A DNA stretch of 64,000 nucleotides, from positions 267,108 to 331,107 of the forward strand of contig NZ_PVTR01000001.1 of NCBI RefSeq assembly GCF_003003005.1. The letters are read 5' to 3'. Origin of the DNA: Mongoliibacter ruber (GTDB taxonomy: Bacteria; Bacteroidota; Bacteroidia; Cytophagales; Cyclobacteriaceae). The notes under the pieces were generated by a model. That model searched no databases. It saw nothing but the letters and a program-made list of their open reading frames with translations, and was not told where the DNA came from. Each line of letters opens with the position of its first letter. The stretch's first letter is position 1. The translations under genes were made by a program, and so were the position numbers. This document shows, one piece after another, positions 14,132 to 45,805 of this stretch.

Positions 14132-14184
14132 TTTGATTTTAGATTTTAGATTTAAGAATTAAGATTTAAAAAGGGATAATCTTT

Positions 14185-14595
14185 TCAGAGGTCTGCCTCC
14201 ATTACTTTAAGCTCTGCTTCGAGGCTTGCAATTTTATTGATGGTATTGATATAGCGTTGATCCTCCTCAATTGGAAAAAGGGAATCCCATTTGGTGACTA
14301 CTTTTGCCAGTTTGTTTTTGTATTCTGTGACCTTTCCTTTCTTTGCTCTGAGCTTATTAATCTTTTGCTGATCAAGCGTTTTTTGGCTGGATTCACAATG
14401 TCCCCACTTGAATTCTACATGGGCTTTGGGGTGTTGAACCTGAGCTAAAGCAGCCCGGTATTTGAAATACCAATCCCATTTATTACGGATTTCAAATCGC
14501 ATATCATCCCATCTGATGATTTGAAGGAGGTTTCCCCCCTTCTTATCAAAAACCTTGATTAGGACAAAGTGGGCATTATCATATACTGTAATCAT
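14185..14595 (-). CDS. hypothetical protein
   Basis: ATG at 14593-14595 overlapping upstream stop (ATGA). Confidence 0.5.
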   Translation of the reverse strand: MITVYDNAHFVLIKVFDKKGGNLLQIIRWDDMRFEIRNKWDWYFKYRAALAQVQHPKAHVEFKWGHCESSQKTLDQQKINKLRAKKGKVTEYKNKLAKVVTKWDSLFPIEEDQRYINTINKIASLEAELKVMEADL

Positions 14596-28367: not shown

Positions 28368-29033
28368 CTATTGGCTTTTCAATTGTTCTTCTAAAAGTTT
28401 AATTTTATGCTCCATGGAAGCAAGTCTTTTTTCCAATGGAGTTTTATCCTTGACAGGACTATAAATTCCAAGCACTTCATAGAGACCTTTAGATTCTTTT
28501 AGGCTAAAGGTTGAATTATCTAGTATGATGCTATTTGGTTTATAGTCATCAACTTTTCCTATTTTATATACGCCATTTGATTGCACTACAAATAGTTTTC
28601 CCACAACCGGCTCATGCGGCACTGCAAAAATTATTTCATCTGGTTTTATATAAGCATTTGCTTCGACTTGATCAGATAAAATGAAAATTAGATTATTTGG
28701 AAAGATTCCCGAATTTTCTCTTGAAAATATCCCTGAAGATAATTGATTAACTGGGTTCTGAATGATTGTTGGTAAACTAAAGCCACTTAATTGATTGACA
28801 GTTACGTTGCTTGAAAGGAGGATATCAGTTGAAAGGTGAAATACTTCTGCTGTTTTCAATATGGTTTCAATTTTTGGTTCTGCCCTTCCCTCTTCATAAG
28901 AACTTATTACACCTCTGCTAACCTCTAGCAAATCTGCCAATTGAGTTTGTGTCAAACCTCTCACATTTCTTATTTTTTTTATGTTTTTACCAAATTTTGA
29001 CATGCCTTTGATTTTCGTAAATTTATGATGCAA
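28368..29033 (-). CDS. cI/LexA-like repressor: XRE HTH N-terminus plus S24-like C-terminal domain
   Basis: RGLTQTQLADLLEVSRGVISSYEEG HTH; ~110-aa C-terminal beta-rich domain; likely true start MSKFGK at ~29003. Confidence 0.6.
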   Translation of the reverse strand: MHHKFTKIKGMSKFGKNIKKIRNVRGLTQTQLADLLEVSRGVISSYEEGRAEPKIETILKTAEVFHLSTDILLSSNVTVNQLSGFSLPTIIQNPVNQLSSGIFSRENSGIFPNNLIFILSDQVEANAYIKPDEIIFAVPHEPVVGKLFVVQSNGVYKIGKVDDYKPNSIILDNSTFSLKESKGLYEVLGIYSPVKDKTPLEKRLASMEHKIKLLEEQLKSQ

Positions 29034-29150
29034 ACAAAATTAGCATTAAATAGCTAATAATAATTGCAAAATTAAAATTTTTATTTATTATTGTAAAACA
29101 GTTGATCTAAATATAATTCATTTTTAAAAAAACCCTATAAAGAGTTGATT

Positions 29151-29540
29151 ATGGAGCATTATTTTAAAATTGTAAAAGAATATGTACTTGAACTTGGTTC
29201 TGTCATCCAATATGAAAATGAGTCTGACAACTTATTGGTAATAGAAAATGAAGATATGGGAGTCAAGAACATGGTGATTGGTGTAGCAACTCCCATCATT
29301 ATTATCGAACAGTACTTGTTCGACTTGAAGGATGAGGCAAATATTTACAAACAGTTGCTTATCAAGAACAGAGACATTGTACACGGTGCATTTGTATTGG
29401 ATGAAACAGGCAAAAAAGTCATTTTCAGAAATACATTGCAGGCAGAAACTTTAGACCTGAAGGAATTGGAAAGTACCATCAATTCGCTCGGCCTTTTGCT
29501 TTCTGAGTATTCAAACGAAATATTATCATTTTCCAAATAA
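29151..29540 (+). CDS. YbjN-like domain protein
   Basis: 129 aa from first ATG (track ORF begins at a TTG 6 nt upstream); alpha/beta pattern typical of YbjN/T3SS-chaperone-like fold. Confidence 0.5.
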   Translation: MEHYFKIVKEYVLELGSVIQYENESDNLLVIENEDMGVKNMVIGVATPIIIIEQYLFDLKDEANIYKQLLIKNRDIVHGAFVLDETGKKVIFRNTLQAETLDLKELESTINSLGLLLSEYSNEILSFSK

Positions 29541-29551: not shown

Positions 29552-30274
29552 ATGAACGTTTTAAAAAGATTATTCAAAATAGGACAAGCAGAAACCAATT
29601 CAGCCATCGACAAACTAGAAGATCCAATCAAAATGATTGAACAGGGTCTTAGAGACATGCATGAAAATCAAGACCGTGCATTAAAGGCACTTGCGGAAGT
29701 TAAAGCAATGCATATTAGAAGAAGCAGGGAACTAAAGGAATCCATCAGTCAAGAAGAAGACCTTCAGAACAAGTCTGTCTTACTCCTGAAAAAAGCACAG
29801 ACGGGTGAGCTGGACAAAACAGAAGCTGACAATTTTGTTAAAGAAAACCTAAGAAGAAAGGCCAAATTAAGCCAGGAAATCAAATTGATAACAGAAGATG
29901 TCAGCAACCTGGAAAAACAAGTGGCAAGTCTTGAACAAAATGTAAACAGAATCAAAGCAGGGATCAAACAGTGGGAAAATGAGCTTGGTACCCTGAGAGC
30001 AAGAATCAAAGTTAGTAGCGCCACTCAGAAGATCAACAAACAGATGACCAATATGGATAGCACAAGTGTGGTGTCTATGTTAGAGCGTATGAAAGACAAA
30101 GTCATACAAGATGAAGCTCTGGCAGAGGCTTATGGAGAAATGGCTGAAAGCAGTATTACACATGAGGAAAAGCTTAAAAAAGCCCTGGAAGATATTTCTG
30201 TAGAGGATGAATTGGCCCAAATGAAAAGAAACATGGGACTCTCCGATTCAAAGGAACAGTCAGAAAATACTTGA
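29552..30274 (+). CDS. pspA: PspA/IM30 (ESCRT-III superfamily) protein
   Basis: N-terminal ...AIDKLEDPIKMIEQGLRDMHEN... matches PspA/Vipp1 helix alpha1-2; 240-aa coiled coil. Confidence 0.85.
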   Translation: MNVLKRLFKIGQAETNSAIDKLEDPIKMIEQGLRDMHENQDRALKALAEVKAMHIRRSRELKESISQEEDLQNKSVLLLKKAQTGELDKTEADNFVKENLRRKAKLSQEIKLITEDVSNLEKQVASLEQNVNRIKAGIKQWENELGTLRARIKVSSATQKINKQMTNMDSTSVVSMLERMKDKVIQDEALAEAYGEMAESSITHEEKLKKALEDISVEDELAQMKRNMGLSDSKEQSENT

Positions 30275-30341: not shown

Positions 30342-30974
30342 ATGGAAAGACTAATTGAAATATCTTTTGCCCCAGCCAATTTCATACTAACCCTCCTGGG
30401 GATTATCATGCTGATTTATTGGCTTGTAGTCATCTTCACAGGTTTTGATTTTGAAGTGGCGGATCTGGATGCAGAAGCTGATCTGAGCAACCCAGAGGTG
30501 GGTGTTGCTGAAGGACAGGGGTTTTGGAATGCATTTATGGAGTTTTTCTATATCGGAGAATTGCCTGTCATGTTTATCATTTCCATTGTCGTATTCACCA
30601 TGTGGCTGATCAATGTAAATGTGACCGCAGTATTTGGAATTTCGGATAGTCTTTTGGGATTCTTGGTGTACATTCCAGGGTTGGTGGTTAGCATGCTCGT
30701 CACAAAAGTAGTTGCCAGACCCTTTGTAAAACTGTATGGGCATTTCAATCACAAAGGTGAAGTTGCAATAGATTTTATAGGAAAAACAGGACGTGTAGTC
30801 TCCCCTATAGGAAAAAACAAAATCGGTCAGATCGAAATACAGATTGAAAGTGATGTCGTAAAGGTCTACGCCAAATCGATTGATGAGGACTTTATTAAGT
30901 TCAATGAGACAGTCATCATTTTGGAAGAGTCCTCGGATAAAAAATATTTTTTAGCTCAAAAATATCAACTATAA
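30342..30974 (+). CDS. NfeD/YqiJ-like membrane protein with C-terminal OB-fold-like domain
   Basis: three or four TM helices then ~70-aa beta-rich C-terminus; immediately upstream of a flotillin gene, as for nfeD/yqiJ. Confidence 0.55.
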   Translation: MERLIEISFAPANFILTLLGIIMLIYWLVVIFTGFDFEVADLDAEADLSNPEVGVAEGQGFWNAFMEFFYIGELPVMFIISIVVFTMWLINVNVTAVFGISDSLLGFLVYIPGLVVSMLVTKVVARPFVKLYGHFNHKGEVAIDFIGKTGRVVSPIGKNKIGQIEIQIESDVVKVYAKSIDEDFIKFNETVIILEESSDKKYFLAQKYQL

Positions 30975-30988: not shown

Positions 30989-33013
30989 ATGATGGAATCA
31001 TTTTATGTAATAGCAGGAATAAGTGTAGTCGTGCTATTAGGGCTATTTGTTTGGCTCATTTCAATGTACAAAAAAGTTAGCCAAGGCCGTGTATTAGTTC
31101 GGACAGGTCAGGGTGGTGTAAGGATATTCTTCAATGCAGGATTGGTGGTACCAATCCTGCACAAAGAAGAAATCATGGACATCTCAGTCAAAAAGCTGGA
31201 AATCTCCAGAATGACGAAAGATGGTCTGATCTGCAAGGACAACATGAGAGCTGACATAAAAGTGGCCTTCTTTGTCCGCGTCAACAAATCTGTTCAGGAT
31301 ATCATTAATGTAGCCCAGACCATCGGATGCGCCAGGGCCTCTGATCATGAGACACTTGAAAGTTTGTTTGAAGCCAAGTTTTCGGAAGCATTAAAAAGTG
31401 TGGGGAAAAAATTTGAATTTATAGAGCTTTATGAAGCTAGGAGAGAATTCAGGGACGAAATTATCGACATCATTGGTACAGATCTAAACGGATACGTGCT
31501 TGATGACTGTGCAATTGACTATTTGGAACAAACCAAAGTAGAAAATCTGGACCGGGACAATATCCTTGATGCTGAAGGTATCAAAAAAATCACAGAGCTG
31601 ACTGCTGCACAAAACATCAAAGCTAACTTGATCAGAAGAGATGAAGAGAAAATCATAAAAAAGCAAGATGTAGAAGCTAGAGAAGCAATTTTGGAGTTGG
31701 AAAAACAACTCAAAGAAAAAGAAGAATCCCAAAGACGTGAAATTGAAACCATAAAGGCCCGAGAGCAGGCAGAGATTGACAAAGTAACATCTCAGGAAAG
31801 GCTTAAGTCAGAGGAAGTACGTATCCGTACTGAAGAGCAGTTGCAAATCCAAGAAGAAAACAAACTTCGACAGGTAATTATTGCATCCAAGAACAAAGAA
31901 CGAGCAGAGGCTGTAGAAACCGAAAGGGTGAAAAAAGACCGTGATATTGAAGCCACAGAACGTGAGCGAGTAGTTGCCCTTGCTCAAATTGAAAAAGAGA
32001 AGGCCGTTGAAATTGAAAAGAAAAACATTCAGGATGCCATTAGGGAGCGAGTAGCTATGGAAAAGACTGTAGTGGAAGAGCAGGAGAAAATCAAAGATGT
32101 AGAAGCACTAAAAGAGGCACATAGACAGAAAGATGTCGCCTTAATAATTGCTTCTAAAGAGGCTGAGAAAAACCTGATTGAAGAAGTGAAAGCTGCAGAA
32201 TCCAAAGAAAAATCTGCCAAGCACGAAGCAGCTAAAATCATCATCGAGGCCAATGCACGCAAAGATGCAGCTGATAAGGAGTCTGATGCAAGAAAAATCA
32301 TTGCCGAGGCAAAAGCCAAAGAAGAAGCTACCATTGGTATGTCAGAAGCACAAGTGATGCATGCTAAAGCTGATGCTATGGAACGTCAGGGAACTGTAGA
32401 TGCCATAGTAATTGAGAAAGTGGCTGAAGCGAAAAGAAAAGAAGGATTGGCAGAGGCTGAAGTAATTCAAGAAAAAGCTATTGCAGAGGCGAAAGGTATT
32501 CAGGAAAAAGCAGGTGCTATGAAGCAACTCAATGATGCTGGGAAAGAGCATGAAGAATTCCGATTGAAGCTTCAAAAGGAAAAAGATGTCGAGTTAGCAC
32601 AAATCAGCATTCAAAAAGATATCGCAGATGCGCAGGCGAAAGTACTTTCAGAAGCATTTAAAACTGCTAAGATTGACATTGTCGGAGGAGACAACACCTT
32701 CTTTGATAATCTTATCAAGCAGATTTCTACCGGAAAAGGAATTGATAAAATGGTTGAAAACTCAACTACCATCACACAATTTAAGGATGCACTTATAGGA
32801 AACGGTATCGACGATACGCCTACGGACTTGATAGAGAAAATAAGAAGCATTGCCCACAAATACGGCATAACCACAGAGGACCTCAAAAACATCTCGATTG
32901 CTGCTCTAATAGCACAAATTCAGATGAAAGCAAGCGATGAGGATAAAGGCTTTTTGGCAAGCATGCTGACCATGGCTAAAGGAATGGGAGTAGAAAACAG
33001 GAGGATCTTATAA
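30989..33013 (+). CDS. flotillin/YqiK-like SPFH (band-7) protein with long E/A/K-rich coiled coil
   Basis: N-terminal TM then SPFH core (GQGGVRIFFNAGLVVPILHKEEIMDISVKKLEI...) and ~350-aa EA repeats. Confidence 0.85.
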   Translation: MMESFYVIAGISVVVLLGLFVWLISMYKKVSQGRVLVRTGQGGVRIFFNAGLVVPILHKEEIMDISVKKLEISRMTKDGLICKDNMRADIKVAFFVRVNKSVQDIINVAQTIGCARASDHETLESLFEAKFSEALKSVGKKFEFIELYEARREFRDEIIDIIGTDLNGYVLDDCAIDYLEQTKVENLDRDNILDAEGIKKITELTAAQNIKANLIRRDEEKIIKKQDVEAREAILELEKQLKEKEESQRREIETIKAREQAEIDKVTSQERLKSEEVRIRTEEQLQIQEENKLRQVIIASKNKERAEAVETERVKKDRDIEATERERVVALAQIEKEKAVEIEKKNIQDAIRERVAMEKTVVEEQEKIKDVEALKEAHRQKDVALIIASKEAEKNLIEEVKAAESKEKSAKHEAAKIIIEANARKDAADKESDARKIIAEAKAKEEATIGMSEAQVMHAKADAMERQGTVDAIVIEKVAEAKRKEGLAEAEVIQEKAIAEAKGIQEKAGAMKQLNDAGKEHEEFRLKLQKEKDVELAQISIQKDIADAQAKVLSEAFKTAKIDIVGGDNTFFDNLIKQISTGKGIDKMVENSTTITQFKDALIGNGIDDTPTDLIEKIRSIAHKYGITTEDLKNISIAALIAQIQMKASDEDKGFLASMLTMAKGMGVENRRIL

Positions 33014-33165: not shown

Positions 33166-36100
33166 ATGGAAACGAATATAGAAAGAGGTACTTACGAAAT
33201 CATACAAGGCCGTCTCCAACAGCAACGGTCCCAACTGATCGAAAGGCTGCAAAAACTTAATAGAGAAAGGCAACAAATATTTGGCGCCGTTGATTTTAAA
33301 CTGCTCTCAAATGTCCGTATCAATACCCAGCACAATTGTATTGCGAGGGATATTGTGTCCGTTGGCGGAATATGTCTTTTCGGATATAATGTCCGTCTTG
33401 GTCTGAAATCAGTCCTGGAAGTTGCAGATGTATTTAGTGCCTTCCGCTTTACAGAAAACGAATTTCACCCCCTCTCTCTGGATATTATTCAGGACAAAAG
33501 TTTTGCTGATGAACTACAAAACCTATATAAATTTTATAGGTATACCCAGTTTTCCAGATTTTTTGTCAAAGGAAATTTTCTCTATATGGTTTTTCAGCTT
33601 TCGGAAAGTCCTACAGATATCAAAGCTTTTAAATGGTTGATCGAAGAGGAAAAGCTTCAGTTCCTAAATTCCAGAAGTGCTGCGGAAGTCACTTTTCCAT
33701 TACAACACGAATTTGAATGGGTGAGAGCTACCCGTGACATGCAGAGAATTGGAAAAAACCCTCATGTTTCAGTGGTAGATAAGGTATTTGTAGAGACTAC
33801 CAAAGGTAACTTGACCATCAAAGTAGAAGACAATACAGATGACGGATTGGGGATATACTCTGAAGATGTGGAACATGCCGATCAGTCTTTGGATGATGGT
33901 GAAATACATTATTGCGACTTGGGAAACCTTGTACTGTTAAAAATTCGCCCTTATTTAGAAAGTGACCGATATTTTATTTTTAATCATCGAATTAAAAATG
34001 TGGTAAGAGTGGATACTCTCAGGGATGCCGGAATCCTTTTACCAGATGATCAAGGCATCATGCTTTCCAATGGTTATTATTTACAGACTGGGGAAAATAA
34101 GATTTTTGACAGAAAAATTGAAGGAGTCAAGTTTTTAAGAAAAATACAGTCTCCAAATGGAGAAGATTACCTTTTTATCTTCTACGAAGAAAAAAACCAT
34201 GACTTTGTGATTCTGTCCTATAATGTCATAGAACAGACAGTAAAAACCCCGATTTTCTGTAATGGCTTCACTCTTTTCAATGACGGTGAACTTTGCTATT
34301 TTAATACAGAAAAAGACCCGAGTAAGCATCACCTGATTCAAATATGGCAAACTCCCTATACCAAGGAGCTCTTACCAAACGAGGCTTTCAAGGATCATGA
34401 ACTTTACAAAATTGGCAATCGGCCAATTGTAAAAGCCATGGCCGAAATCCAAGAACTTGTTGTTTTGCTGAATAAAGAAGACAGTTATAATGGCTTGTAT
34501 GAAGATATTGAAAAACGAAGTCAAAGCATTCTGGACGGTTACTTTTGGTTGAAAAACAATGCCCCGGAAGGACTACAGCAACCCTTACAACAAGTTAAGG
34601 AAATAGCCCTTTCAGCCATTGATGAGTATGAAAAAGTAGTCCAAATCAGAGAAAATACGGTCGCTACTTCGAATAAGGTCAAAGAAAAAGTAGAGAAAAT
34701 ACTTTTTGACACACGTAGCGCCAATTTTGACAGCCTTGACAAATATGTTTCATTGCTTTCGCAGATGAGGGGAATTCGAGGTGAGATTATCGGACTCAAA
34801 AATCTGCGGTACATAGACATGGAAATGGTGGATCAGCTTGAAGATCAGATGTCTAAAAGATCAGAAGAGCTATCCAAAGGTTGTGTACAGTTTTTGTTGC
34901 AAGACAATGCTCTTGAGTATTATCAGACTCAAATGGAACAATTGACGGAGTCAGTTGGAGGGCTGTCCAAGGTCATAGATGCTAAGGAATTGGAAAAGGA
35001 ATTAAATGCCCTTTCTCTACAGTTAGAGTTGTTGATTGATATAGTAAACAACCTTAATGTAGAGGACACTGCGCATTCCACCCAAATCATTGAAAACATT
35101 TCCTTGATTTTTGCCCAACTTAATCAGCAAAGGGTTGCCCTTAACAACCGAAGAAGGCAGCTTGGAGAACGGGAAGCCAGAGCTGATTTCCAAGCACAAA
35201 TGACCTTATTTGAACAATCTATAGTCAACTATTTAGACTTGGCCAATGATCCGGTCAAATGTGACGAATACCTCACAAAGCTTTCAATACAGCTAGAAGA
35301 ACTGGAAGGACGTTTTGTTGATTTTGATGAATTTATAGACAAAATAAGTGAAAAAAGGGAATCAGTTTATGCTGCTTTTGAATCCAAAAAAGTCAACCTA
35401 ACTGAAGCTCGAAATCGCAGAACCAACTCTCTATTCAGTTCCGCTGAACGTATCTTGAAAAGTATTAAATCACGGGCCGGAAGTTTTGAAACAGATGTTG
35501 AAATTAACGGCTATTTTGCATCAGATCTGATGATTGAAAAGGTACGTGATGTGGCTTCGCAGTTACAGCAGTTGGATGATGCAGCCAAGTCAGAGGATTT
35601 ACTGTATCAACTGCAGGTATTACAACAAGAATCCATACGTGCATTAAAAGATAGAAATGAGCTTTTTGAAGATGGTAATCAAGTCATCAAACTTGGGGAA
35701 TACCGCTTTGCTGTCAATCAGCAAAAACTAGACCTTACTTTGGTGATAAAAGAGCGCCAATATTATTTTCACCTTACAGGAACCTCCTATTACGAACAAG
35801 TAAATGCTCCTGAAATCGAGGCTTTGAAAGACCTATGGGAACAGGAACTGCCCTCAGAAAATCAGACGGTTCATAGAACAGAATACTTGGCTTGGCAGGT
35901 TTTTCATACGCTCGATAAAAGCAAACCATTAACAGAAGCCGAATTAATAAGTAGTATAGCGAAATATACCTCCAAACATTATGGGGAAGGTTATGTCAAA
36001 GGCGTACATGATCAAGACGCCCTGTTGATCTTGAAAACGCTGCTTGAAAAAGACAGAGACCTAGGGTTACTCCGCTTTGCTGCCGATACCAGAGTATTGG

Positions 36101-38022
36101 CACAACTTTTCTGGCATTTCTTTGCTGAGGATCAAAAGGCTTTTTTCAAAAAACAGTTTGTCTTCCTCAACTTGCTCAAACAAGCTTTTAGCCACTCACG
36201 GGAGGAGCTACACTTACTGGAAACACTCAGGAAAGCCATTTCACAATTTTCTAAAGCACACAAATTATTTGAAAGTACCGATCCATATCAGGCTGCTCTA
36301 TATTTGGCAGAAGAACAGGCATCAGAAGGCGTTGTGATGGAGGCTAATGCATTTGACTTGCTTCAAAACTTCAAAAAGGAACTGAAATCAAAAAATGCAG
36401 ACTTAACTTTTACTGAAGCACAACAAGAGATCGCAGCATTCCCAGCTGAAGTCTGGCATCTATCAAGGCAATGGCTCAGTACCTATGCTGAAAACCAACA
36501 ACTTTCACTCCCTGATAGCATTTTGGATGAAGCCACAGCGTATATAGTTACCAAAGCTGCAAACATTCAAAGTGTTCAACAAATTTCAGGTAAAGCCAGT
36601 CTAGAAGGGCTAAAAGAAGCCATAGGTCAACAGGATGGAGAAGAGAATCTTTACCAATTCGATTACCATGACTTTACCCGTAGACTAAAGCATTTTACAG
36701 AAGAAATTCAACCCAGATATCAGCAATTGCAGAGTTTGAAACACCAGCTAATTTTGCAGAAAAGACAAGCTCTTCGTTTGCATGAATTCCAAACGCAAGT
36801 TCTGACCAGTTTTGTACGAAATAAGTTGATCAACCAGGTATACTTCCCTTTGATCGGAGCCAATTTCGCCAAACAGTTGGGGGCATTTGGCGCAGACAAA
36901 CGAACCGACCGGTCAGGGATGCTGCTGCTTATTTCCCCTCCTGGATATGGCAAAACCACCCTGATGGAATATGTAGCAGATCGCTTGGGATTAATTTTTA
37001 TGAAGATAAACGGTCCTTCCATAGGGCATGAAATCACCTCGGTGGATCCTTCAGAAGCAAGAAATGCCGCGACTAGACAGGAACTACAGAAACTGAACTT
37101 GGCATTTGAAATGAGTGACAATGTGATGCTCTACCTGGACGATATTCAGCATTGTAATCCGGAATTTCTTCAAAAGTTCATTTCTCTCGCAGATGGACAA
37201 AGAAAGATAGAGGGTGTTTTTAACGGCGTTTCTAAAACTTATGATTTCAGAGGCAAGCGCTTCTGTGTGGTTATGGCAGGTAATCCCTATACCGAAAGTG
37301 GGGATAAATTCCAGATCCCAGATATGTTGTCAAACAGGGCTGATATTTACAACTTAGGTGACACCGCATCCAATAGAGCTGATTTGTTCAAGCTGAGCCT
37401 AATAGAAAATGGATTAACTTCCAATTCCCACCTCAAATCCATTACCCAGTATGGGTTGGATAATTTATATAAACTGGTGGAATTTATAGAAAGCGAACAA
37501 CAACAGTTGCCTGATTTGGAGGGCAACATAACCTCCCAAGAAATCCAAGATTGTGTGCAAGTATTGCGAAAAACGATGGTTATCAGAGATGTTGTATTGA
37601 AGGTCAATGCCCAATACATTGCTTCTGCAGCCATGTCCGATGACTATAGAACTGAGCCACCGTTCAAGCTACAGGGTTCTTATCGGGATATGAATAAGCT
37701 GATGGGTCAAGTAGTACCGATTTTGAATGATGGTGAAATAACTCAATTGCTGTTGGACCATTATCAAAACGAATCCCAGACATTGACTTCCGATGCTGAA
37801 TCCAATTTATTGAAATTATCCGAAATGATGGATTTGCTAGATCCCAAAAAACTAGCCAGATGGGAAGCTATTAAAACTGCATTTGTTCGAAACAACCGGG
37901 TTAAAGGCATGGGAGATTCTGACAGGATGGCACAGGTAATTGGTCAAATGACTCTGTTTGTTGAAGGTTTGGAGGGCATAAAGAATGCTCTAAATCAATT
38001 CAACAAAAATGATAAATTATAA
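33166..38022 (+). CDS. giant (1618 aa) protein: beta-rich N-terminal region, ~700-aa helical region, AAA+ (AAA_5/MoxR-like) ATPase module
   Basis: Walker A LISPPGYGKTTL (~36940), Walker B MLYLDDIQ, sensor-1-like VVMAGNPY; ATG 33166 verified. Confidence 0.7.
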   Translation: METNIERGTYEIIQGRLQQQRSQLIERLQKLNRERQQIFGAVDFKLLSNVRINTQHNCIARDIVSVGGICLFGYNVRLGLKSVLEVADVFSAFRFTENEFHPLSLDIIQDKSFADELQNLYKFYRYTQFSRFFVKGNFLYMVFQLSESPTDIKAFKWLIEEEKLQFLNSRSAAEVTFPLQHEFEWVRATRDMQRIGKNPHVSVVDKVFVETTKGNLTIKVEDNTDDGLGIYSEDVEHADQSLDDGEIHYCDLGNLVLLKIRPYLESDRYFIFNHRIKNVVRVDTLRDAGILLPDDQGIMLSNGYYLQTGENKIFDRKIEGVKFLRKIQSPNGEDYLFIFYEEKNHDFVILSYNVIEQTVKTPIFCNGFTLFNDGELCYFNTEKDPSKHHLIQIWQTPYTKELLPNEAFKDHELYKIGNRPIVKAMAEIQELVVLLNKEDSYNGLYEDIEKRSQSILDGYFWLKNNAPEGLQQPLQQVKEIALSAIDEYEKVVQIRENTVATSNKVKEKVEKILFDTRSANFDSLDKYVSLLSQMRGIRGEIIGLKNLRYIDMEMVDQLEDQMSKRSEELSKGCVQFLLQDNALEYYQTQMEQLTESVGGLSKVIDAKELEKELNALSLQLELLIDIVNNLNVEDTAHSTQIIENISLIFAQLNQQRVALNNRRRQLGEREARADFQAQMTLFEQSIVNYLDLANDPVKCDEYLTKLSIQLEELEGRFVDFDEFIDKISEKRESVYAAFESKKVNLTEARNRRTNSLFSSAERILKSIKSRAGSFETDVEINGYFASDLMIEKVRDVASQLQQLDDAAKSEDLLYQLQVLQQESIRALKDRNELFEDGNQVIKLGEYRFAVNQQKLDLTLVIKERQYYFHLTGTSYYEQVNAPEIEALKDLWEQELPSENQTVHRTEYLAWQVFHTLDKSKPLTEAELISSIAKYTSKHYGEGYVKGVHDQDALLILKTLLEKDRDLGLLRFAADTRVLAQLFWHFFAEDQKAFFKKQFVFLNLLKQAFSHSREELHLLETLRKAISQFSKAHKLFESTDPYQAALYLAEEQASEGVVMEANAFDLLQNFKKELKSKNADLTFTEAQQEIAAFPAEVWHLSRQWLSTYAENQQLSLPDSILDEATAYIVTKAANIQSVQQISGKASLEGLKEAIGQQDGEENLYQFDYHDFTRRLKHFTEEIQPRYQQLQSLKHQLILQKRQALRLHEFQTQVLTSFVRNKLINQVYFPLIGANFAKQLGAFGADKRTDRSGMLLLISPPGYGKTTLMEYVADRLGLIFMKINGPSIGHEITSVDPSEARNAATRQELQKLNLAFEMSDNVMLYLDDIQHCNPEFLQKFISLADGQRKIEGVFNGVSKTYDFRGKRFCVVMAGNPYTESGDKFQIPDMLSNRADIYNLGDTASNRADLFKLSLIENGLTSNSHLKSITQYGLDNLYKLVEFIESEQQQLPDLEGNITSQEIQDCVQVLRKTMVIRDVVLKVNAQYIASAAMSDDYRTEPPFKLQGSYRDMNKLMGQVVPILNDGEITQLLLDHYQNESQTLTSDAESNLLKLSEMMDLLDPKKLARWEAIKTAFVRNNRVKGMGDSDRMAQVIGQMTLFVEGLEGIKNALNQFNKNDKL

Positions 38023-38511: not shown

Positions 38512-40560
38512 TTAAGTTATAGAGGAGTTTTCCATTGCATTTACTCCTTGACTAAGATTTGATGTAGTGATTTTAATAATACTATTCAGTAAAATATTTT
38601 TATCCAAGATACCTGGCCCAACATTGACGATATTACCTTCACAATTCACAAGATTATTCCCAGTGAACTGAAACATCTTTTGGGTATTTATTTCAAATTT
38701 CCCACCCATACAATTATTATAATTGAATCTGTTTGCAAACCCAAAACGGCTACCGTAGAAATTACGAATATCAAATGGACGCTCGCAATTGTTGAAGTTA
38801 TTCTTATAAATATTGTTCCCAATAGCATAGTTGAAAAATTCAGGATTTGTCACTCCAAAACTCCCGAATCCAGCTAGATGCATTCCATGCTTGCATCCAT
38901 CGACGGTATTGTTTTCTACATTGCAGTAAAAACTGGCACCCCAAAGACTGATACCATGTCCCGGTTGTCCACTGGCTGGTATTGCACCATAGACTATGTT
39001 ACCAGATATGTCACAATTGTATGCGCCGGTAAACAAAGCGACTTCTGTCCCTTTTGACAGTTTTGATTTATCTAAACTTGCCTTTAAAAAAAGTCTATAA
39101 GTAGTACGCCCTTCAAAATTAATCACTTCTGATCTCTCAATAAGGGATGTGGTTAACTCCAATGCACCAGATTCAATCAAAAACAGGAAATTTTTCGGGT
39201 CATCAATTTGATCAGCATTTATTGTTCTATGCTCAAAACCTCCCCCATTATCCTTTTGTTGAACAAAAATCAATTGCTGAAGGTCAATGATTCTACCTAC
39301 GACAAAATCTCCCTTCATCCAATCTCTTACATTTTCGATTTTTGTTCTTGCTATTACCGGAAACAATCCAAGATTATTTCCAAAAGCATCAATTGAAATA
39401 CTTTCTTCTGTACAGTTCTTTACCTCATTATCCCTGATTTTTACATTTCTTAATAACTTTCTCCTTTGAGTTGCTACCTGAATACCAGTGGTCCCATTTT
39501 TTACTTTATTTTTTGACACATCACATGCACCAATGAAATCATTTACCCGAATCGGATGCGAAGACGATTCTATATTCATATCACAGTATTGAATTTCCAC
39601 ATTATTTGCTGTACCCACCCAAATACCACAATAGACGCTATCGGCATTAATTTTTACACCATGACAATATATATTTGATTTTGAATGATTAACATTGATA
39701 AGATAAGTTGATGATGTAGTAATGGTCTTGAAATTCAATTCAACGTTCTTAAGATAAAAATCCCTATCCAAATGTCTGCTTCCCGTTGAAGGAATAATGT
39801 TGTGCAAAGTCAGGTTTTCGAGCTTGCTATCGATTGAGGCGATAATGTCAGGATTAGTGCTGACACCGATCAATACCGAATTGCCCGACCCTTTTATTTT
39901 CAATGGTTGCTGATCAAAGAAAAGTGTATTGAGTCCATGCCCTTGTAAATGAATAAAAGTGCCATTCGGAACCAGCACTTCGCAACCGCATAAATTGTAT
40001 TTATTCAAATCATCTGCTGAAATAAAACCAATTGCATTTTCAAGTACGAATGAACCATTGTTATTTTTCAATATATGAGGTGATATTGACTGTATGCTAA
40101 AAGTAGTAGGTTGACCGTTGGTCAAAATATTGTTATAAGTCACATCACCTTTCTCTGTAGGATATAAAATATAATACACTTTCTCATTACTATTTTCAAT
40201 GACTATTCTACTATGATAAGTATCCTTGAATGTATAGCCATGAACTTGTGAATCGATTGACCTTGCCCCTAGTGAAGTGATATCAATAGTCCCGGCAAGG
40301 CCTTCAGAGGTAGGTTGAAGGCTTGAATGAGGATTAGGTTCCGGATTTGAATGAGACGCCTGTACAGGAACTGATTGGGAAATAGGCACAGGAATAACGG
40401 CAGGATTTGGTTCTGGCTGTTTTGAATGAGTTTCAATATTATCAACCAACTCTTTTAAGGTTTTAAGCCTTGAAGTAATATCATTCGCCAGATTTACTAT
40501 AGTGTCAGCATCTACTCTGATTGTCTCTGCATTTTGAATAATTCTTTCTTTATTGTTCAT
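38512..40560 (-). CDS. right-handed parallel beta-helix protein with N-terminal coiled coil and Pro-rich linker (tailspike- or lyase-like)
   Basis: repeated N/G/V-rich beta-helix rungs (NNTVDGCKHGMHLAG, IYKNNFNNCERPFDIRNF...); no signal peptide; flanked by ~500-bp AT-rich non-coding DNA. Confidence 0.6.
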   Translation of the reverse strand: MNNKERIIQNAETIRVDADTIVNLANDITSRLKTLKELVDNIETHSKQPEPNPAVIPVPISQSVPVQASHSNPEPNPHSSLQPTSEGLAGTIDITSLGARSIDSQVHGYTFKDTYHSRIVIENSNEKVYYILYPTEKGDVTYNNILTNGQPTTFSIQSISPHILKNNNGSFVLENAIGFISADDLNKYNLCGCEVLVPNGTFIHLQGHGLNTLFFDQQPLKIKGSGNSVLIGVSTNPDIIASIDSKLENLTLHNIIPSTGSRHLDRDFYLKNVELNFKTITTSSTYLINVNHSKSNIYCHGVKINADSVYCGIWVGTANNVEIQYCDMNIESSSHPIRVNDFIGACDVSKNKVKNGTTGIQVATQRRKLLRNVKIRDNEVKNCTEESISIDAFGNNLGLFPVIARTKIENVRDWMKGDFVVGRIIDLQQLIFVQQKDNGGGFEHRTINADQIDDPKNFLFLIESGALELTTSLIERSEVINFEGRTTYRLFLKASLDKSKLSKGTEVALFTGAYNCDISGNIVYGAIPASGQPGHGISLWGASFYCNVENNTVDGCKHGMHLAGFGSFGVTNPEFFNYAIGNNIYKNNFNNCERPFDIRNFYGSRFGFANRFNYNNCMGGKFEINTQKMFQFTGNNLVNCEGNIVNVGPGILDKNILLNSIIKITTSNLSQGVNAMENSSIT

Positions 40561-41072: not shown

Positions 41073-41909
41073 ATGAAAAAAATCCTAATTCCTACCGACT
41101 TTTCCGCCTGTGCAAAAACAGCTGAATCATATGGGATGGCATTAGCCAAACAGATCAAAGCGGAATTGGTCTTTCTCCATATCATCATCACACCAGTAAA
41201 CTGGTCTAAGCTGACCAAAGAGCAGGAAAATTTATTTCCTGAAACCAAAGAAAAAATTAGTAATGCCAAAATGGAGTTGAAATCCCTGATCGAACAAGCT
41301 GAAAAATCCGGCATCAAAGCAACAAAGCTACTGGTCTTCAATAGTGGCAATGAGAAAATTCATCAGTTTATCGATTCCGAAAAAATAGACCTTGTGGTAA
41401 TGGGTTCTCACGGCCAATACGGCTTCAAAGAGCATGTGTTAGGGACAAATACCTACAGTATGCTAAGAAGGGCTGAAATACCTGTCATAGTTGTCAAAGA
41501 GGAAAACCCTAAAGCGGCAATTAAGAACCTGGTATTCGCTACTAACTTTAAAGAGGAAACAGGGACCTCCTTTGCCCATATTGAAAGAATGGCTGAAGAA
41601 CTTGGTGCAAAATTACACATACTCTTTGTGAACACACCGACATACTTCATGGAGACCAATGATATTCTTTCAGTTGGCAATTCTTACTTAAGTGAATTTG
41701 GCAACTATAATTATGATATTACAATAATTGATGCATTCAAGGAAGAAAGAGGTATACTCCAGTTTGCGGAAAAATTAGATGCTGATGGCATTGCAGTGAT
41801 AACATTTGGGAAGTCTGATTTGATGCAATACTTCTCTCCTAGCATTACTGAAAACCTTATTGCCATGACTGAATTACCAGTGATAAGTATTAGAAAAACA
41901 AAAAAATAG
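41073..41909 (+). CDS. tandem universal stress protein (UspA family)
   Basis: two Usp-like halves (MKKILIPTDFSACAKTA...; NLVFATNFKEETG...). Confidence 0.8.
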   Translation: MKKILIPTDFSACAKTAESYGMALAKQIKAELVFLHIIITPVNWSKLTKEQENLFPETKEKISNAKMELKSLIEQAEKSGIKATKLLVFNSGNEKIHQFIDSEKIDLVVMGSHGQYGFKEHVLGTNTYSMLRRAEIPVIVVKEENPKAAIKNLVFATNFKEETGTSFAHIERMAEELGAKLHILFVNTPTYFMETNDILSVGNSYLSEFGNYNYDITIIDAFKEERGILQFAEKLDADGIAVITFGKSDLMQYFSPSITENLIAMTELPVISIRKTKK

Positions 41910-41939
41910 TTTGCAGAATAAGTAGAATCTGTGGTATTA

Positions 41940-41969
41940 AAGCAACTTCATTTTGGAGTTGCTTTTTTT
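41940..41969 (+). terminator. rho-independent terminator after usp
   Basis: GCAACT/AGTTGC stem (41942-47/41957-62) followed by TTTTTTT. Confidence 0.6.
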
Positions 41970-41970
41970 A

Positions 41971-42000
41971 AATAAAAAAGCGGGAGAAACTCTCCCGCTC
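41971..42000 (-). terminator. rho-independent terminator after the 42106..42993 gene
   Basis: perfect 9-bp stem AGCGGGAGA/TCTCCCGCT, T-run on minus strand. Confidence 0.6.
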
Positions 42001-42105
42001 TTTATATGAAAACTAAACCAACTATTATTTAACTACCACAATTAAAACAAAAATAGCACTTAAATATAAAATTCAAAATTTTTATCAAAAAAGGTAAACA
42101 GATAC

Positions 42106-42993
42106 CTATTTTTTGTTACTCACTTTATATAAAATGCCCAATGCCAGAGCTTGGCTATATTGAATTCCAGGATCCATATCGATATCATAAACATTAATAC
42201 TAGTCAAAGTAACATCAACAAATTCTGTGATTTTTGCAATCACAGTAATATCCAATCTATGATCAATTGTATTGAAAGCTAGTGTTTCGTAATTGGCGAA
42301 TAGCTGATACCTGGTGTTGATAGCAAAATTTTCAGTGATTGCCTTATTGTAAGTCATGAAAACTTGTGCTGCAAGCCACTCAGTTCTTATTTTACTTCCA
42401 ATTGGTACACCATAATTTTCAGGTACATTATCAGCTATAGTGAGGTTGTTGACAAAGGTAAGTCTTGGAGATATGGGAGCAATTCTAAGCGCAAACTCAT
42501 CATTAGGCTTATATTCTGCACCAAAACCCGTCATTAGGAAGGCTGGTGCGAAAAAACTTGAAATTAGCGTTGGTTCATCAGGCCCGTAATCAAAGCCATC
42601 AGCGAATTGAGTTATAAAATTAAGAGAACCAAAGTAATTCCATTTGTCTGAAATTTTATACCCCACTTTGGAATCGAAGAATATCCTATCATTTGATTTC
42701 CTCAATTCTTGACCTTCATTTTTGACTACTCCAAAAATCATTTCTAGCTGATTATCCCAAGTCCATTTATCTTTGGCATAATTAGCATTTCCTGTCAATA
42801 ATGACCCGAAGGCGACTGAGTTGACACCACCTGCTTTCCAATTACCACTGAAGGAGGCTTGGTTGAAGTTCAACCCAAAACTTAATCCCGAATCCCAATA
42901 AGTAGTATCCTGAACTATATCACTATCTAAATCTTGAGCGGAGGCCTGGTAGATTAAAACAAAACAAAAACATACAAGTAGAACTTTTTTCAT
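42106..42993 (-). CDS. outer-membrane beta-barrel protein (hypothetical)
   Basis: signal peptide MKKVLLVCFCFVLIYQASAQ; alternating amphipathic strands; aromatic C-terminus. Confidence 0.55.
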   Translation of the reverse strand: MKKVLLVCFCFVLIYQASAQDLDSDIVQDTTYWDSGLSFGLNFNQASFSGNWKAGGVNSVAFGSLLTGNANYAKDKWTWDNQLEMIFGVVKNEGQELRKSNDRIFFDSKVGYKISDKWNYFGSLNFITQFADGFDYGPDEPTLISSFFAPAFLMTGFGAEYKPNDEFALRIAPISPRLTFVNNLTIADNVPENYGVPIGSKIRTEWLAAQVFMTYNKAITENFAINTRYQLFANYETLAFNTIDHRLDITVIAKITEFVDVTLTSINVYDIDMDPGIQYSQALALGILYKVSNKK

Positions 42994-43146
42994 CGTAAAT
43001 AATTTAAGTTAAAGAATTATTCAAAGTAAATAATTAATCTAAAGAATTTGAAATGCGTAAACATAATACTAAAAAAAAATAATAAGTACCTTCTGTTCTA
43101 TTCACCATTCAATAAATAAAGGCATAAAACCCATATCTCCTATAAA

Positions 43147-43713
43147 ATGCTTAACCACCAAACTTTCAAAATCGTGTTATTCCTTTCTGTTTTAGCTCTC
43201 AGTAGTTGCAGCTCTATTGAAATGTTCAAAGAAAAAACCGAATTTGCTCCCTATAAGAAATACTCCACATTTGCCATATTAAATAAAGAGTTTGACCAAA
43301 AAGGTTTTAATGATCCATTTTTGGACGCTTTAGTTTTGGATGGACTTGAATTCTTGTTGGCAGAACAAGGCTTGGTATATGATGCAAATGAACCGGAAAT
43401 TATCCTGAGATATACATCTAATGAAGATCCTCGGCAAAAGGAAATAGTAAATAACAGAATGCCCATGTGGGGATTTAGGGTTTGGGATCCTTGGATGTAT
43501 GATCCTAGATTTATGAATCAATCACCTGTAAGCACGAAAAACTATGAATTGCTGCAACTTATCGTCGATTTTATAGATCCCAAAAATGACAAAATGCTAA
43601 TGAGACTTACAGCTGTCTCAGAAGTGACTTCAGTGAAAGACAAAAGAAAAAAAGTGAAAAAATCAGTTCAAAAAGTAGTTGAAACCTATACTGCACATAT
43701 CAAAGTCAATTAG
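43147..43713 (+). CDS. lipoprotein (DUF4136-like)
   Basis: lipobox LALSSC; ~188 aa. Confidence 0.5.
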   Translation: MLNHQTFKIVLFLSVLALSSCSSIEMFKEKTEFAPYKKYSTFAILNKEFDQKGFNDPFLDALVLDGLEFLLAEQGLVYDANEPEIILRYTSNEDPRQKEIVNNRMPMWGFRVWDPWMYDPRFMNQSPVSTKNYELLQLIVDFIDPKNDKMLMRLTAVSEVTSVKDKRKKVKKSVQKVVETYTAHIKVN

Positions 43714-43730
43714 TTTAAACCCCTATCATT

Positions 43731-44045
43731 ATGGAAAAAAAATTCAATTCACTTAGAGATTTTTACCCATATTACCTTTCCGAACACCTAAATCCCACGT
43801 GTAGAAAGCTACATTTCATAGGCACAGCTTTACTTTTTGTTATCTTGGCTTATGCCCTTTTCACAGCCAACTACTTGTTTCTACTTCTAATACCTGTGGT
43901 CGGATATGGGTTTGCTTGGGTTGGACATTTTTTCTTCGAAAAAAATAAACCAGCAACTTTTCAATACCCTTTTTACAGTCTTGCTTCTGATTTTATCCTC
44001 TTTTTTGACTTATTGATTGGTAAACAAAAGTTCAATCCTGATTAA
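43731..44045 (+). CDS. DUF962 (Mpo1-like) membrane protein
   Basis: FYPYYLSEHLNPTCRKLHFIGT start and two TM helices. Confidence 0.55.
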   Translation: MEKKFNSLRDFYPYYLSEHLNPTCRKLHFIGTALLFVILAYALFTANYLFLLLIPVVGYGFAWVGHFFFEKNKPATFQYPFYSLASDFILFFDLLIGKQKFNPD

Positions 44046-44145
44046 TTATTTTTATATACAAAAAAACGTTATTTAAATATTGGATATAAAAAACAATATG
44101 CTATTTTTGTAATTATATTTTTGCATTTCAAATTAATAAAATTGC

Positions 44146-44508
44146 ATGTTGATGGTAAGGATAGTTCTAATAGACGATGATCCAATAAGTACATTCGTGA
44201 CAGAAAAGCTGATTTCTAAAAATATCAGATTCCCTCATCAGATATTTAAATACGATAGCGCCGTAAACGCTCTAAAAGAAATGGATAATATTCAACCTAA
44301 TTATCTATTTCTAGATTTGAATATGCCGGAAATGACTGGATGGGACTTTTTAGAAGAATTTGAACCCTGTCAATCATCCCCGGAAGTTTATATTCTCAGT
44401 AGTTCTGTTGATGAAAGAGATATTGATAAAGCAAGAAATTATTCAGTCGTCAAAAAATATCTTTCTAAACCTCTTATCAAAAAATACATTAAAACCATCT
44501 TCAACTGA
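44146..44508 (+). CDS. single-domain response regulator (CheY-like receiver)
   Basis: VLIDDD...LDLNMPEMTGWDFL...SKP receiver signature. Confidence 0.75.
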   Translation: MLMVRIVLIDDDPISTFVTEKLISKNIRFPHQIFKYDSAVNALKEMDNIQPNYLFLDLNMPEMTGWDFLEEFEPCQSSPEVYILSSSVDERDIDKARNYSVVKKYLSKPLIKKYIKTIFN

Positions 44509-44751
44509 TTTACTTTTTGCTGTTGGTATCAATTTCTGATTGATACTTTATCCATGATGTAATTATTTAACTTTTACTAAAATCAACTTCCACTACTTTC
44601 TTATCCTTAGGAGAGCAATACGGCGTGCACTAAAACTGTTTTTTACTTTATCAGATTTTATTATGGCAGGATAGTCTTACTTTTTTTTTAAACGAACAAA
44701 CAAGTGAAGCTTCAAATTGGTTAATTTTAAGAGTAATTAATTGAAACCATT

Positions 44752-45225
44752 ATGGCGAAACCAAGCGAACACCTAATAGAAGCTTTTAGAAAAACTATTT
44801 ACAAACTAAAACACAATGCTCCATATCAGTGGGGACACATGGGAGCGTGCAATTGTGGTAATTTAGCCCAAGAACTTACAAAACTCAGCAAAGGTGAAAT
44901 TCACAGCTTTGCAATGCAGAAATCGGGTGATTGGAACGATCAATTAGTCGATTATTGTCCTACCAGCGGTTATCCTATGGATTTGATGATAAGCAGAATG
45001 ATTGAGGCTGGCCTCACAATTGATGAGTTGAAACACCTAGAGACCTTATCTGATCAAAGAATACTTGAAAAGATTCCTTTTGAAAGAAGAATGAAGATGA
45101 AAAAAAATTCAAAGGAAGATGTAATTCTATATATGGAAACATGGTTAGGAATCATTGAGGAAGCATTTTTGAAAAATATTGAAATTCAACTTCCTGAAAA
45201 TAAAAGGTTAAAATCTTTTGCTTAA
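44752..45225 (+). CDS. hypothetical protein
   Basis: 157 aa; no motif recognised. Confidence 0.45.
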   Translation: MAKPSEHLIEAFRKTIYKLKHNAPYQWGHMGACNCGNLAQELTKLSKGEIHSFAMQKSGDWNDQLVDYCPTSGYPMDLMISRMIEAGLTIDELKHLETLSDQRILEKIPFERRMKMKKNSKEDVILYMETWLGIIEEAFLKNIEIQLPENKRLKSFA

Positions 45226-45307
45226 AAGAGTAACAAAAAATAAACTTTCGGAGTATTAGCGTAAAACAATCCTTTTAATATATTTGGGAAAATAATTTAA
45301 TCACGCT

Positions 45308-45505
45308 ATGGAAGAATTCGACGACGATTTTGATGAGTTTGATGACACTGAAGATGATGATGAGTTTGCAGAAGAATTTCAGGATGAAGTCTATGACCTA
45401 GATGAAGATTCTGAGTTTCTTGATGACAACATCATAGACTTCGATGATGATGACCTTGAAGAAGACTTCGACGATGATGATCTCGAAGATGATCTTGACG
45501 ATTAA
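45308..45505 (+). CDS. hyper-acidic small protein (65 aa, ~60% Asp/Glu)
   Basis: MEEFDDDFDEFDDTEDDDEF...; terminator immediately downstream. Confidence 0.45.
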   Translation: MEEFDDDFDEFDDTEDDDEFAEEFQDEVYDLDEDSEFLDDNIIDFDDDDLEEDFDDDDLEDDLDD

Positions 45506-45526
45506 ATGAAACTAATCTCAAACTGA

Positions 45527-45558
45527 AAAGCAGGTTATATTTAATCTGCTTTTTTTAT
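45527..45558 (+). terminator. rho-independent terminator
   Basis: AAAGCAG/CTGCTTT stem followed by TTTTTTTATTTT. Confidence 0.55.
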
Positions 45559-45626
45559 TTTCCCTTTGAAGGCTTAATGTTGTCCCGTATATTTCGGAAA
45601 ATTTATAGAACTAAAAACACAAAAAT

Positions 45627-45767
45627 ATGACCTTGTTAGAAATATTTAGCTCTCCGATTGCTTCCGGTGCCCAAACTTTTATCCTGATCGTATGCATCTT
45701 GATTGGACTTGGAGCAGGAATCAGCGCTATTGACGTAAAAAACACTAAAGAACCAAAAGAAAAATAA
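45627..45767 (+). CDS. unannotated small membrane protein (~46 aa)
   Basis: MTLLEIFSSPIASGAQTFILIVCILIGLGAGISAIDVKNTKEPKEK; bracketed by two terminators; below track length cut-off. Confidence 0.3.
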   Translation: MTLLEIFSSPIASGAQTFILIVCILIGLGAGISAIDVKNTKEPKEK

Positions 45768-45768
45768 A

Positions 45769-45795
45769 AGAGGTCGATAAGACCTCTTTTTTTAT
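45769..45795. terminator. bidirectional rho-independent terminator
   Basis: AGAGGTC-gataa-GACCTCT followed by TTTTTTT; T-rich on other strand. Confidence 0.65.
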
Positions 45796-45805
45796 AAATG
45801 ATTTT

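Follow-up and report, generated by a model that had tools for sequence, protein, structure and literature searches.

The open reading frame (ORF) at positions 33166..38022 (+) of the window, the 64,000-nucleotide stretch of Mongoliibacter ruber contig NZ_PVTR01000001.1 (positions 267,108 to 331,107) that was analysed here, encodes the ATPase that closes a flotillin operon. We propose that its product is a soluble AAA+ remodeller of the flotillin/YqiJ membrane module, and of PspA where the latter is present, and give this reading a probability of about 0.55. It draws on the linkage of the gene to those of flotillin and a YqiJ-like protein across phyla, on the invariance of the Walker A residues, N1373 and R1391, and on the distribution of membrane segments, which flotillin and the YqiJ-like protein have and the ATPase has not. 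As both the family and the operon are already described in the literature, the protein is an ordinary find and not a discovery; its moderate interest lies in the biochemical role that a conserved ATPase would play alongside bacterial flotillin.

Family membership and homologues

The gene is one unbroken ORF with a product of 1618 amino acids, just as a preliminary description, made from the letters of the window alone, had reported, and has an ATG start. The same description could not place the protein in a known family, which no longer holds, as Pfam assigns it to a DUF3686, DUF7902 and AAA architecture and both this architecture and the operon have been published (PMC11237479). The DUF3686 profile (PF12458, 'ATPase involved in DNA repair') is matched end to end by residues 24-460 (E 2.3e-182; score 606.9 bits, cut-off 25; positions 2-448 of the 448-position profile), DUF7902 (PF25472) by residues 581-665 (E 1.2e-23), and both AAA (PF00004) and AAA_5 (PF07728) exceed their curated cut-offs at residues 1253-1376. 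Only one AAA unit is present in the whole protein according to the Pfam scan and the AlphaFold2 models, in line with what had been read from the sequence. The NCBIfam scan of the ATPase gave only sub-threshold P-loop matches (RuvB, CDC48, BrxF) and none of the SMC/SbcC type, and no membrane segment was detected in it (highest 19-residue Kyte-Doolittle mean 1.30).

A protein search against 5.8 billion sequences returned more than 4120 homologues at E ≤ 1e-10, spread over many bacterial phyla, and 205 residues were invariant across 51 homologues from several phyla; with these two results the feature lies far above chance level. The best 120 of the more than 4120 homologues (1598-1625 amino acids, 99-100% query coverage) share an identical Pfam set and carry the names 'DNA repair ATPase' or 'AAA family ATPase', the closest named one being that of Mongoliitalea daihaiensis (80% identity). 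With the head domain as the sole query, 666 clusters at 50% identity were found among 1.84 billion representatives (E ≤ 1e-3), and in the full-length matches (about 1550-2036 amino acids) the head sits, with one exception, at or near the N-terminus. By its sequence, the ATPase is thus an orthologue within the catalogued DUF3686, DUF7902 and AAA family. The preliminary description would have been overturned by a full-length match to a family of known function, SMC for instance; none was found, the homologous family being known from comparative genomics only.

A 'beta-propeller + coiled-coil + AAA-ATPase' protein in this same operon was reported by Ravi, Anantharaman, ... Aravind, Gennaro (mSystems 2024; PMC11237479), who list among the parts of the operon a CesT/Tir-PspA pair, a three-transmembrane (3TM) YqiJ/YuaF protein, a band-7/flotillin protein and the ATPase, give Dokdonia donghaensis ANH61663.1 as an example and describe shortened flotillin/YqiJ operons, with or without the ATPase, as more widespread.

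The operon and its conservation

The ATPase gene is the last of a same-strand operon with the order CesT-like, PspA, YqiJ-like, flotillin and ATPase, in which the successive intergenic gaps measure 11, 67, 14 and 152 nucleotides and no terminator-like site precedes the ATPase gene. A divergently transcribed helix-turn-helix (HTH) regulator lies upstream of the operon:

28368..29033, minus strand: XRE-type HTH regulator, 221 amino acids, divergent (Pfam HTH_3); position kept in Bacteroidota loci
29145..29540, plus strand: CesT/Tir-like chaperone-fold protein, 131 amino acids (PF22550, CesT_Tir_1, E 2.4e-52)
29552..30274, plus strand: PspA/IM30 (bacterial ESCRT-III), 240 amino acids (Pfam PspA_IM30, E 2.2e-37)
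30342..30974, plus strand: YqiJ-like (NfeD-like) membrane protein, 210 amino acids, with about three hydrophobic segments and a C-terminal soluble domain
30989..33013, plus strand: flotillin-type SPFH protein, 674 amino acids, with an N-terminal membrane segment, Band_7 and a long E/K-rich helical region; directly upstream of the ATPase
33166..38022, plus strand: the ATPase, whole ORF, 1618 amino acids; DUF3686 / DUF7902 / AAA+ protein, database name 'DNA repair ATPase'

For the conservation of this neighbourhood, one genome per GTDB species was scanned, which yielded 565 relatives, and 80 loci were kept (Bacteroidota, Planctomycetota, Verrucomicrobiota, Kiritimatiellota, Desulfobacterota, Omnitrophota and one Clostridiaceae). 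Their identity to the ATPase is 42-55% (70% in one case), in almost all of them across residues ~1-1610, and they were compared by tblastn with the window neighbours as well as by unsupervised clustering of all flank ORFs; 62 of the 80 were informative, having at least 3.5 kb of upstream DNA. In 59 of these 62 loci, a flotillin gene on the same strand directly precedes the ATPase gene, which answers the call of the preliminary description for homologues and their gene neighbourhoods, and the median gap between flotillin and ATPase genes is 139 nucleotides (55 loci with flotillin placed by ORF clustering). The YqiJ-like gene is kept in 57 of the informative loci. Only six conserved families emerged from the clustering, namely the ATPase (79 loci), flotillin (64), the YqiJ-like protein (60), the HTH regulator (34), PspA (34) and the CesT-like protein (32), while any further flank family was found in at most nine of the 80 loci.

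The HTH-CesT-PspA extension is restricted to Bacteroidota among the 80 loci, with the position of the regulator kept in 34 loci of this phylum, and the flotillin/YqiJ linkage extends across phyla; the constant partner is therefore flotillin together with the YqiJ-like protein, and not PspA. The YqiJ-like/flotillin/ATPase triad is also annotated in Deinococcus and on the Pseudomonas fluorescens megaplasmid pQBR103, the operon of which carries YjfI and PspA as well.

Two candidates for additional partners were rejected. Between flotillin and ATPase, the 18 loci with a gap of ~0.7-2 kb hold mutually unrelated ORFs (lipoprotein-like, DUF559-like, transposase-like and toxin-antitoxin-like, as labelled from their translations), and the convergent 682-residue ORF downstream of the ATPase (38512-40560, minus strand) has no homologue in the 80 loci and no significant Pfam, NCBIfam or PADLOC match.

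Some observations on individual operon members are added here. In the flotillin, the hydrophobic segment spans residues 1-31 and Band_7 is recognised (E 3.3e-13) when the N-terminal 254 residues are scanned alone, whereas the full-length protein gives no Pfam match at E ≤ 0.01; the E/K-rich helical region probably triggers the HMMER bias filter in the full-length scan, and automatic annotation could miss the Band_7 domain of such flotillins. The YqiJ_N profile (PF21001) is matched by 12 of 29 orthologues of the YqiJ-like protein, the C-terminal part of which shows a weak NfeD match (E 0.072). The HTH regulator is listed as 'cHTH+Protease' (LexA/cI-like) in PMC11237479, and the C-terminal 132 residues of the window protein, where the protease part would lie, have no Pfam match at E ≤ 0.1. 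On plasmid pQBR103 of Pseudomonas fluorescens SBW25 (L081, locus 986-14190), the ATPase closes an 11-gene same-strand cluster with the order YjfI, PspA, rhomboid protease, DUF2491, DUF350, DUF1190, glutathionylspermidine synthase-like, YqiJ-sized hypothetical, SPFH and 'DNA repair ATPase', and this cluster unites two PspA operon types that were kept separate by Ravi et al. (PMC11237479).

The conserved neighbours bear directly on the database name. If the protein were a DNA-repair ATPase of the SMC, Rad50 or SbcC kind, a nuclease or DNA-binding partner might be sought next to it, but none is present among the conserved neighbours in the 80 loci, all of which are membrane-stress proteins. The likeness to these ATPases consists of length, many long helices and inherited names (Pfam DUF3686 'ATPase involved in DNA repair', NCBI 'DNA repair ATPase'), the name itself probably deriving from coiled-coil similarity. 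Models of SMC, Rad50, SbcC and RecN were unmatched in Pfam and NCBIfam at E ≤ 0.01, and the P-loop sits in a C-terminal AAA+ module, with a helix and a propeller at the N-terminus; SMC, Rad50 and SbcC are instead ABC ATPases with a split head and an antiparallel coiled coil, and the window ATPase has neither split head nor hinge nor zinc hook. An SMC-like or DNA-repair identity was rejected on these grounds and is scarcely credible. The label 'DNA repair ATPase', which is attached to thousands of entries, is thus unsupported and would be better replaced by 'flotillin-operon AAA+ ATPase of unknown function'.

It was also considered whether the operon could be an anti-phage or conflict system, in which the large ATPase would sense infection and its membrane partners would cause membrane damage. 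Such a role would suit the control by an XRE-type regulator, the copies on a few megaplasmids and the position of the operon beside a mobile, defence-like stretch (Type ISP restriction enzyme, Schlafen-like helicase, C5 methylase), but the genes that flank the operon vary between loci, so that this adjacency is local. In PADLOC-DB 2.0, no operon protein had a meaningful match (the best for the ATPase being mad8, E 0.0055, with 0 passing stretches, and the remaining ones generic coiled-coil or HTH matches), a search for phage homologues found none, and just 13 of 72,556 plasmid records matched, those above 1.5 Mb reading by their size as chromids or mislabelled chromosomes. Moreover, full-length identities of 42-55% and a fixed synteny across phyla are unlike the fast-evolving, patchy distribution of defence genes. 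A defence-system identity was rejected in view of the PADLOC result, the lack of phage homologues and the rarity on plasmids, and we hold it to be highly improbable.

The AAA+ module

The C-terminal part of the protein was modelled with AlphaFold2 (residues 1101-1618, mean pLDDT (predicted local distance difference test) 74.7), and the conservation of its motifs was judged over two multi-phylum sets, one of 24 and one of 51 homologues. No other part of the protein is as well conserved as the AAA core, and the Walker A, Walker B and sensor-like motifs were found exactly in the place indicated by the preliminary description, at residues 1255-1266, 1323-1328 and 1368-1375:

36778..37365, plus strand: AAA+ alpha/beta core, residues ~1205-1400, 76% mean identity across phyla
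36928..36963, plus strand: Walker A / P-loop LISPPGYGKTTL, residues 1255-1266; G1260, G1262, K1263 and T1264 invariant
37132..37149, plus strand: Walker B YLDDIQ, residues 1323-1328; D1325-D1326 invariant
37201..37251, plus strand: predicted pre-sensor-1 beta-hairpin, residues ~1346-1362, RKIEGVxxGxxKTYDxRG; R1346, G1350, T1358, Y1359 and D1360 invariant
37267..37290, plus strand: sensor-1 strand VVMAGNPY, residues 1368-1375; N1373 invariant
37336..37338, plus strand: R1391, invariant; candidate arginine finger, placed by aligning motifs with the AAA second region of homology
37366..38019, plus strand: helical lid and C-terminal helical tail, residues 1401-1618, all-helical in the model

In the model, Walker A follows strand 1 and Walker B stands at the end of strand 3. 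With a P-loop core, Walker A, Walker B and sensor-1 in AAA+ strand order and a helical lid behind them, the AAA+ fold is certain. The alignment makes R1391 a candidate for the arginine finger, and an invariant stretch in the tail (R1495, E1497, P1498, F1500, Q1503, G1504, S1505, Y1506, R1507) includes the motif GSYR (1504-1507), which could possibly be sensor 2.

The assignment to a clade within AAA+ is not certain. Searches of PDB chains with the single sequence and with a profile placed classical AAA proteins first (Rix7, p97, VAT, NSF), with RuvB and midasin next, and the Rix7, p97 and VAT matches are limited to the N-terminal half of the module, from helix 0 to strand 2 (~35-68 query residues per stretch). 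Neither a similarity over the whole module to the classical clade (p97, NSF, FtsH, Vps4), including the two-arginine second region of homology, nor the aromatic-hydrophobic-Gly pore loop 1 of that clade was found, and the stretch resembling the second region of homology holds a single conserved Arg, R1391. In Foldseek, MoxR proteins had the best target-normalised template modelling scores (TM-scores; 0.55-0.62), the margin over non-MoxR AAA+ proteins being small. The MoxR clade is marked by a helix-2 insert, a pre-sensor-1 hairpin and a pre-sensor-2 insert, and a partner gene with a VWA domain is typical of it. A pre-sensor-1 hairpin, with strands at 1348-1352 and 1355-1359 between the Walker B and sensor-1 strands, is predicted by the model and would point towards the MoxR/HCLR side and away from the classical clade; after strand 2, no hairpin is predicted and residues 1283-1300 form coil or a short helix. 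The spacing of ~110 residues between strand 5 and GSYR is compatible in length with a pre-sensor-2 insert. No VWA match was found in the six window genes, and no VWA partner among the six families conserved in the 80 neighbourhoods. By a small margin, MoxR may be the nearest clade. Of the dynein/MoxR-type likeness proposed in the preliminary description, the dynein half is not supported (there is a single AAA unit and the helices are N-terminal to it), and the MoxR half is limited by the sequence searches, which favour classical AAA proteins.

These data also speak to the idea that the protein is a MoxR-type chaperone needed for the maturation or activation of one particular enzyme or metal centre, with its N-terminal region in place of the VWA adaptor. 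CbbQ/CbbO serve Rubisco and NorQ/NorD nitric oxide reductase in this manner. The Foldseek scores, the AAA_5 match above the Pfam cut-off and the predicted pre-sensor-1 hairpin would agree with such a chaperone; however, the narrow Foldseek margin, the preference of sequence searches for classical AAA proteins, the lack of Pfam AAA_lid_2 and AAA_3 matches and a conserved neighbourhood of just six operon genes, with no VWA partner or client enzyme beyond them in the 80 loci, make it very unlikely.

The head, the arm and the middle domains

Residues 1-1150 were modelled separately with AlphaFold2 (mean pLDDT 78.5, predicted TM-score (pTM) 0.41). The two models reproduce the proposed order of a beta-rich head, a helical middle, a single AAA+ module and a helical tail, and resolve its N-terminal part as follows:

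33175..33282, plus strand: N-terminal long helix, residues 4-39 (model)
33301..34347, plus strand: beta-propeller head and core of DUF3686, residues 46-394, about seven four-stranded blades (model strand pattern, Pfam, Foldseek)
34399..35661, plus strand: helical arm, residues 412-832, 13 helices of 15-58 residues each with loops between them; 46% mean identity across phyla
34906..35160, plus strand: DUF7902 within the helical arm, residues 581-665 (Pfam E 1.2e-23)
35683..35799, plus strand: small conserved beta domain, residues 840-878 (model and conservation)
35806..36555, plus strand: all-alpha domain, residues 881-1130 (model)

The head is modelled as a roughly seven-bladed beta-propeller. 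Foldseek searches of the model against the PDB returned seven-bladed propellers at E ~1e-5 to 1e-4 (DCAF1 WD40, Vps11, the clathrin terminal domain, the prolyl-oligopeptidase propeller and PON1), and also propeller-plus-solenoid coat proteins with a very poor global superposition, while sequence searches found no solved-structure relative for the first 1200 residues at E ≤ 1. Beta-propellers are typical protein-binding platforms. In the small beta domain, G844, F848, V850, N851, L857, H869, G872 and T873 are invariant across phyla, and no family or function could be recognised for it.

What had been taken for a helical stalk of about 700 residues is indeed helical in the middle of the protein, but not continuous, as it consists of ~420 residues of broken helices, a beta insert and a globular alpha domain. 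The many heptad-like segments noted earlier are weakly borne out, since in a single-register a/d heptad test against shuffles just one of ten long helices reached p ~0.01; the test is conservative, as stutters would break one register. A canonical coiled coil in the arm was rejected on this essentially negative result, and the 'stalk' is better called a series of helical segments or bundles. The least conserved stretches are the alpha domain (901-1135, 28% identity) and the linker 1136-1200 (25%), against 52% for the propeller and 46% for the arm across the 51 homologues; the latter values are high for mere spacers and suggest specific interfaces.

The combination of a propeller with a helical arm, a layout known from clathrin, nucleoporins, and IFT and HOPS subunits, raises the possibility of a structural scaffold or coat-like protein, which would cover or enclose flotillin domains in a lattice or cage and use its AAA+ module as a nucleotide-regulated oligomerisation switch without any motor function. 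Coat proteins were returned by Foldseek for the 1-1150 model (clathrin heavy chain 5ods, IFT-A, nucleoporins, Vps11), the arm is unusually well conserved, Walker B has DD in place of DE and the aromatic pore loop is absent. These coat matches, however, have TM-scores of ~0.1 and large root-mean-square deviations and cover mainly the propeller alone, and the AAA core, with its 76% identity, invariant sensor-1 and invariant candidate Arg finger, argues for real catalysis. We consider a pure scaffold plausible but, on balance, unlikely.

Proposed function

We return to the reading of the protein as a remodeller of the flotillin/YqiJ module. The ATPase would be the soluble cytoplasmic component of a module completed by the YqiJ/NfeD-like membrane protein and flotillin as the SPFH scaffold. 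The operon of Bacteroidota, like that of one Pseudomonas megaplasmid, also includes PspA and a CesT-like chaperone (of the YjfI type in Pseudomonas), and Bacteroidota have the HTH regulator in addition. The domain architecture, the conserved nucleotide-binding motifs, the lack of membrane segments and the close linkage to the flotillin and YqiJ-like genes across phyla are established by the data above; for the oligomeric state, binding partners, direction of remodelling and physiological trigger, we infer the following. The C-terminal AAA+ modules would come together as a ring, most likely hexameric, from each subunit of which an arm of ~1200 residues, made of helical segments, would extend with the seven-bladed propeller at its tip. 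Propellers and arms could grip flotillin assemblies, or PspA polymers where present, at the inner face of the membrane, and nucleotide-driven movements of the ring would then remodel, assemble or dismantle these assemblies under envelope stress. The action may be slow and clamp- or switch-like, as in MoxR proteins, rather than that of a processive unfoldase. The term 'stalk-bearing mechanochemical ATPase' used in the preliminary description is a reasonable but tentative suggestion. As parallels, Vps4 acts on ESCRT-III and FtsH works inside HflK/C cages.

Several points weigh against this proposal. Three of the informative loci (L054, L058 and L061) have no adjacent flotillin, and many bacteria, E. 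coli included, carry yqiJK without this ATPase, which, if so, would make the ATPase accessory and not core to flotillin function. In place of the catalytic Glu of the AAA+ hhhhDE motif, Walker B (LYLDDIQ) has an Asp (D1326) in all homologues of both sets, and pore loop 1 has no conserved aromatic residue, the equivalent stretch in the homologue alignment being INGPxxGHxxTSxDP; together, these two features make threading of the Vps4/FtsH kind doubtful and favour a slower, MoxR-like or switch-like remodeller. The pTM values of the two models (0.41 and 0.59) render the inter-domain arrangement unreliable, and searches of the literature turned up no experimental study of the DUF3686/AAA family.

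A more daring version, which we regard as speculative and quite unlikely, would have a hexameric AAA+ ring with six propeller-tipped arms dock on the cytoplasmic flotillin/YqiJ cage and drive its opening, closure or recycling (and that of PspA polymers in Bacteroidota) under envelope stress, and thus be the missing energy-consuming partner of flotillin. If true, bacteria would possess an equivalent of the machines for uncoating or ESCRT recycling, and the propeller-plus-helical arm might be evolutionarily related to the eukaryotic coat (protocoatomer) architecture. The role of bacterial flotillins is still debated, and a strongly conserved ATPase gene that almost always follows flotillin, across at least nine phyla, offers a concrete handle on it.

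Surroundings of the operon

The region upstream (window 1-28000) resembles a mobile or defence-type region that ends just before the flotillin operon and is no part of it. It contains a RadC-like JAB protein, a ClpP-like protease, a 1076-residue Type ISP restriction-modification enzyme, a Schlafen-like/superfamily 1 (SF1) helicase, a C5 cytosine methylase and a DUF5906 protein (ORFs include 246-935, 4017-5246, 6978-10208, 11068-12552, 12566-14131 and 19168-21696); the guanine-plus-cytosine content falls to 0.29 at 10-12 kb, and the AT skew is strongly negative over 14-26 kb. Downstream (window 41073-47389), ordinary chromosomal genes follow, among them those of a tandem universal stress protein, DUF3078 and DUF4136 proteins, an Mpo1-like protein, a stand-alone response regulator receiver and a POT-family peptide transporter.

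Comparison with known systems

Dynein- and midasin-type motors consist of six concatenated AAA units, and in dynein the stalk is inserted within one of them, whereas the window protein has one unit with its helical region N-terminal to it. The MoxR-type proteins CbbQ (6l1q) and NorQ (9qh4) share just 15-16% identity with the window ATPase, which differs from them by its 1200-residue N-terminal extension, its DD Walker B, the lack of a predicted helix-2 insert hairpin and the lack of a VWA-domain partner among the conserved neighbours. Compared with Vps4 and its substrate ESCRT-III, the window ATPase is devoid of an MIT domain and of an aromatic pore loop, and its family has flotillin as the constant partner, PspA being missing from the operon in those of the 80 loci that come from phyla other than Bacteroidota.

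The pair of HflK/C and FtsH, in which an SPFH cage surrounds an AAA+ protease, is established knowledge (reviewed in PMC9020784). The likeness lies in an SPFH-family scaffold that goes together, genetically and functionally, with an AAA+ machine of the inner membrane, a pairing that in the window is read from gene order alone; FtsH is membrane-anchored and has a protease domain and classical AAA pore loops, while the window ATPase is soluble and lacks both a protease domain and an aromatic pore loop. The operon described by Ravi et al. (PMC11237479), known from comparative genomics only, shows the same family, domain order, gene order and divergent HTH regulator as the window, with no essential difference between its ATPase family and the protein studied here.

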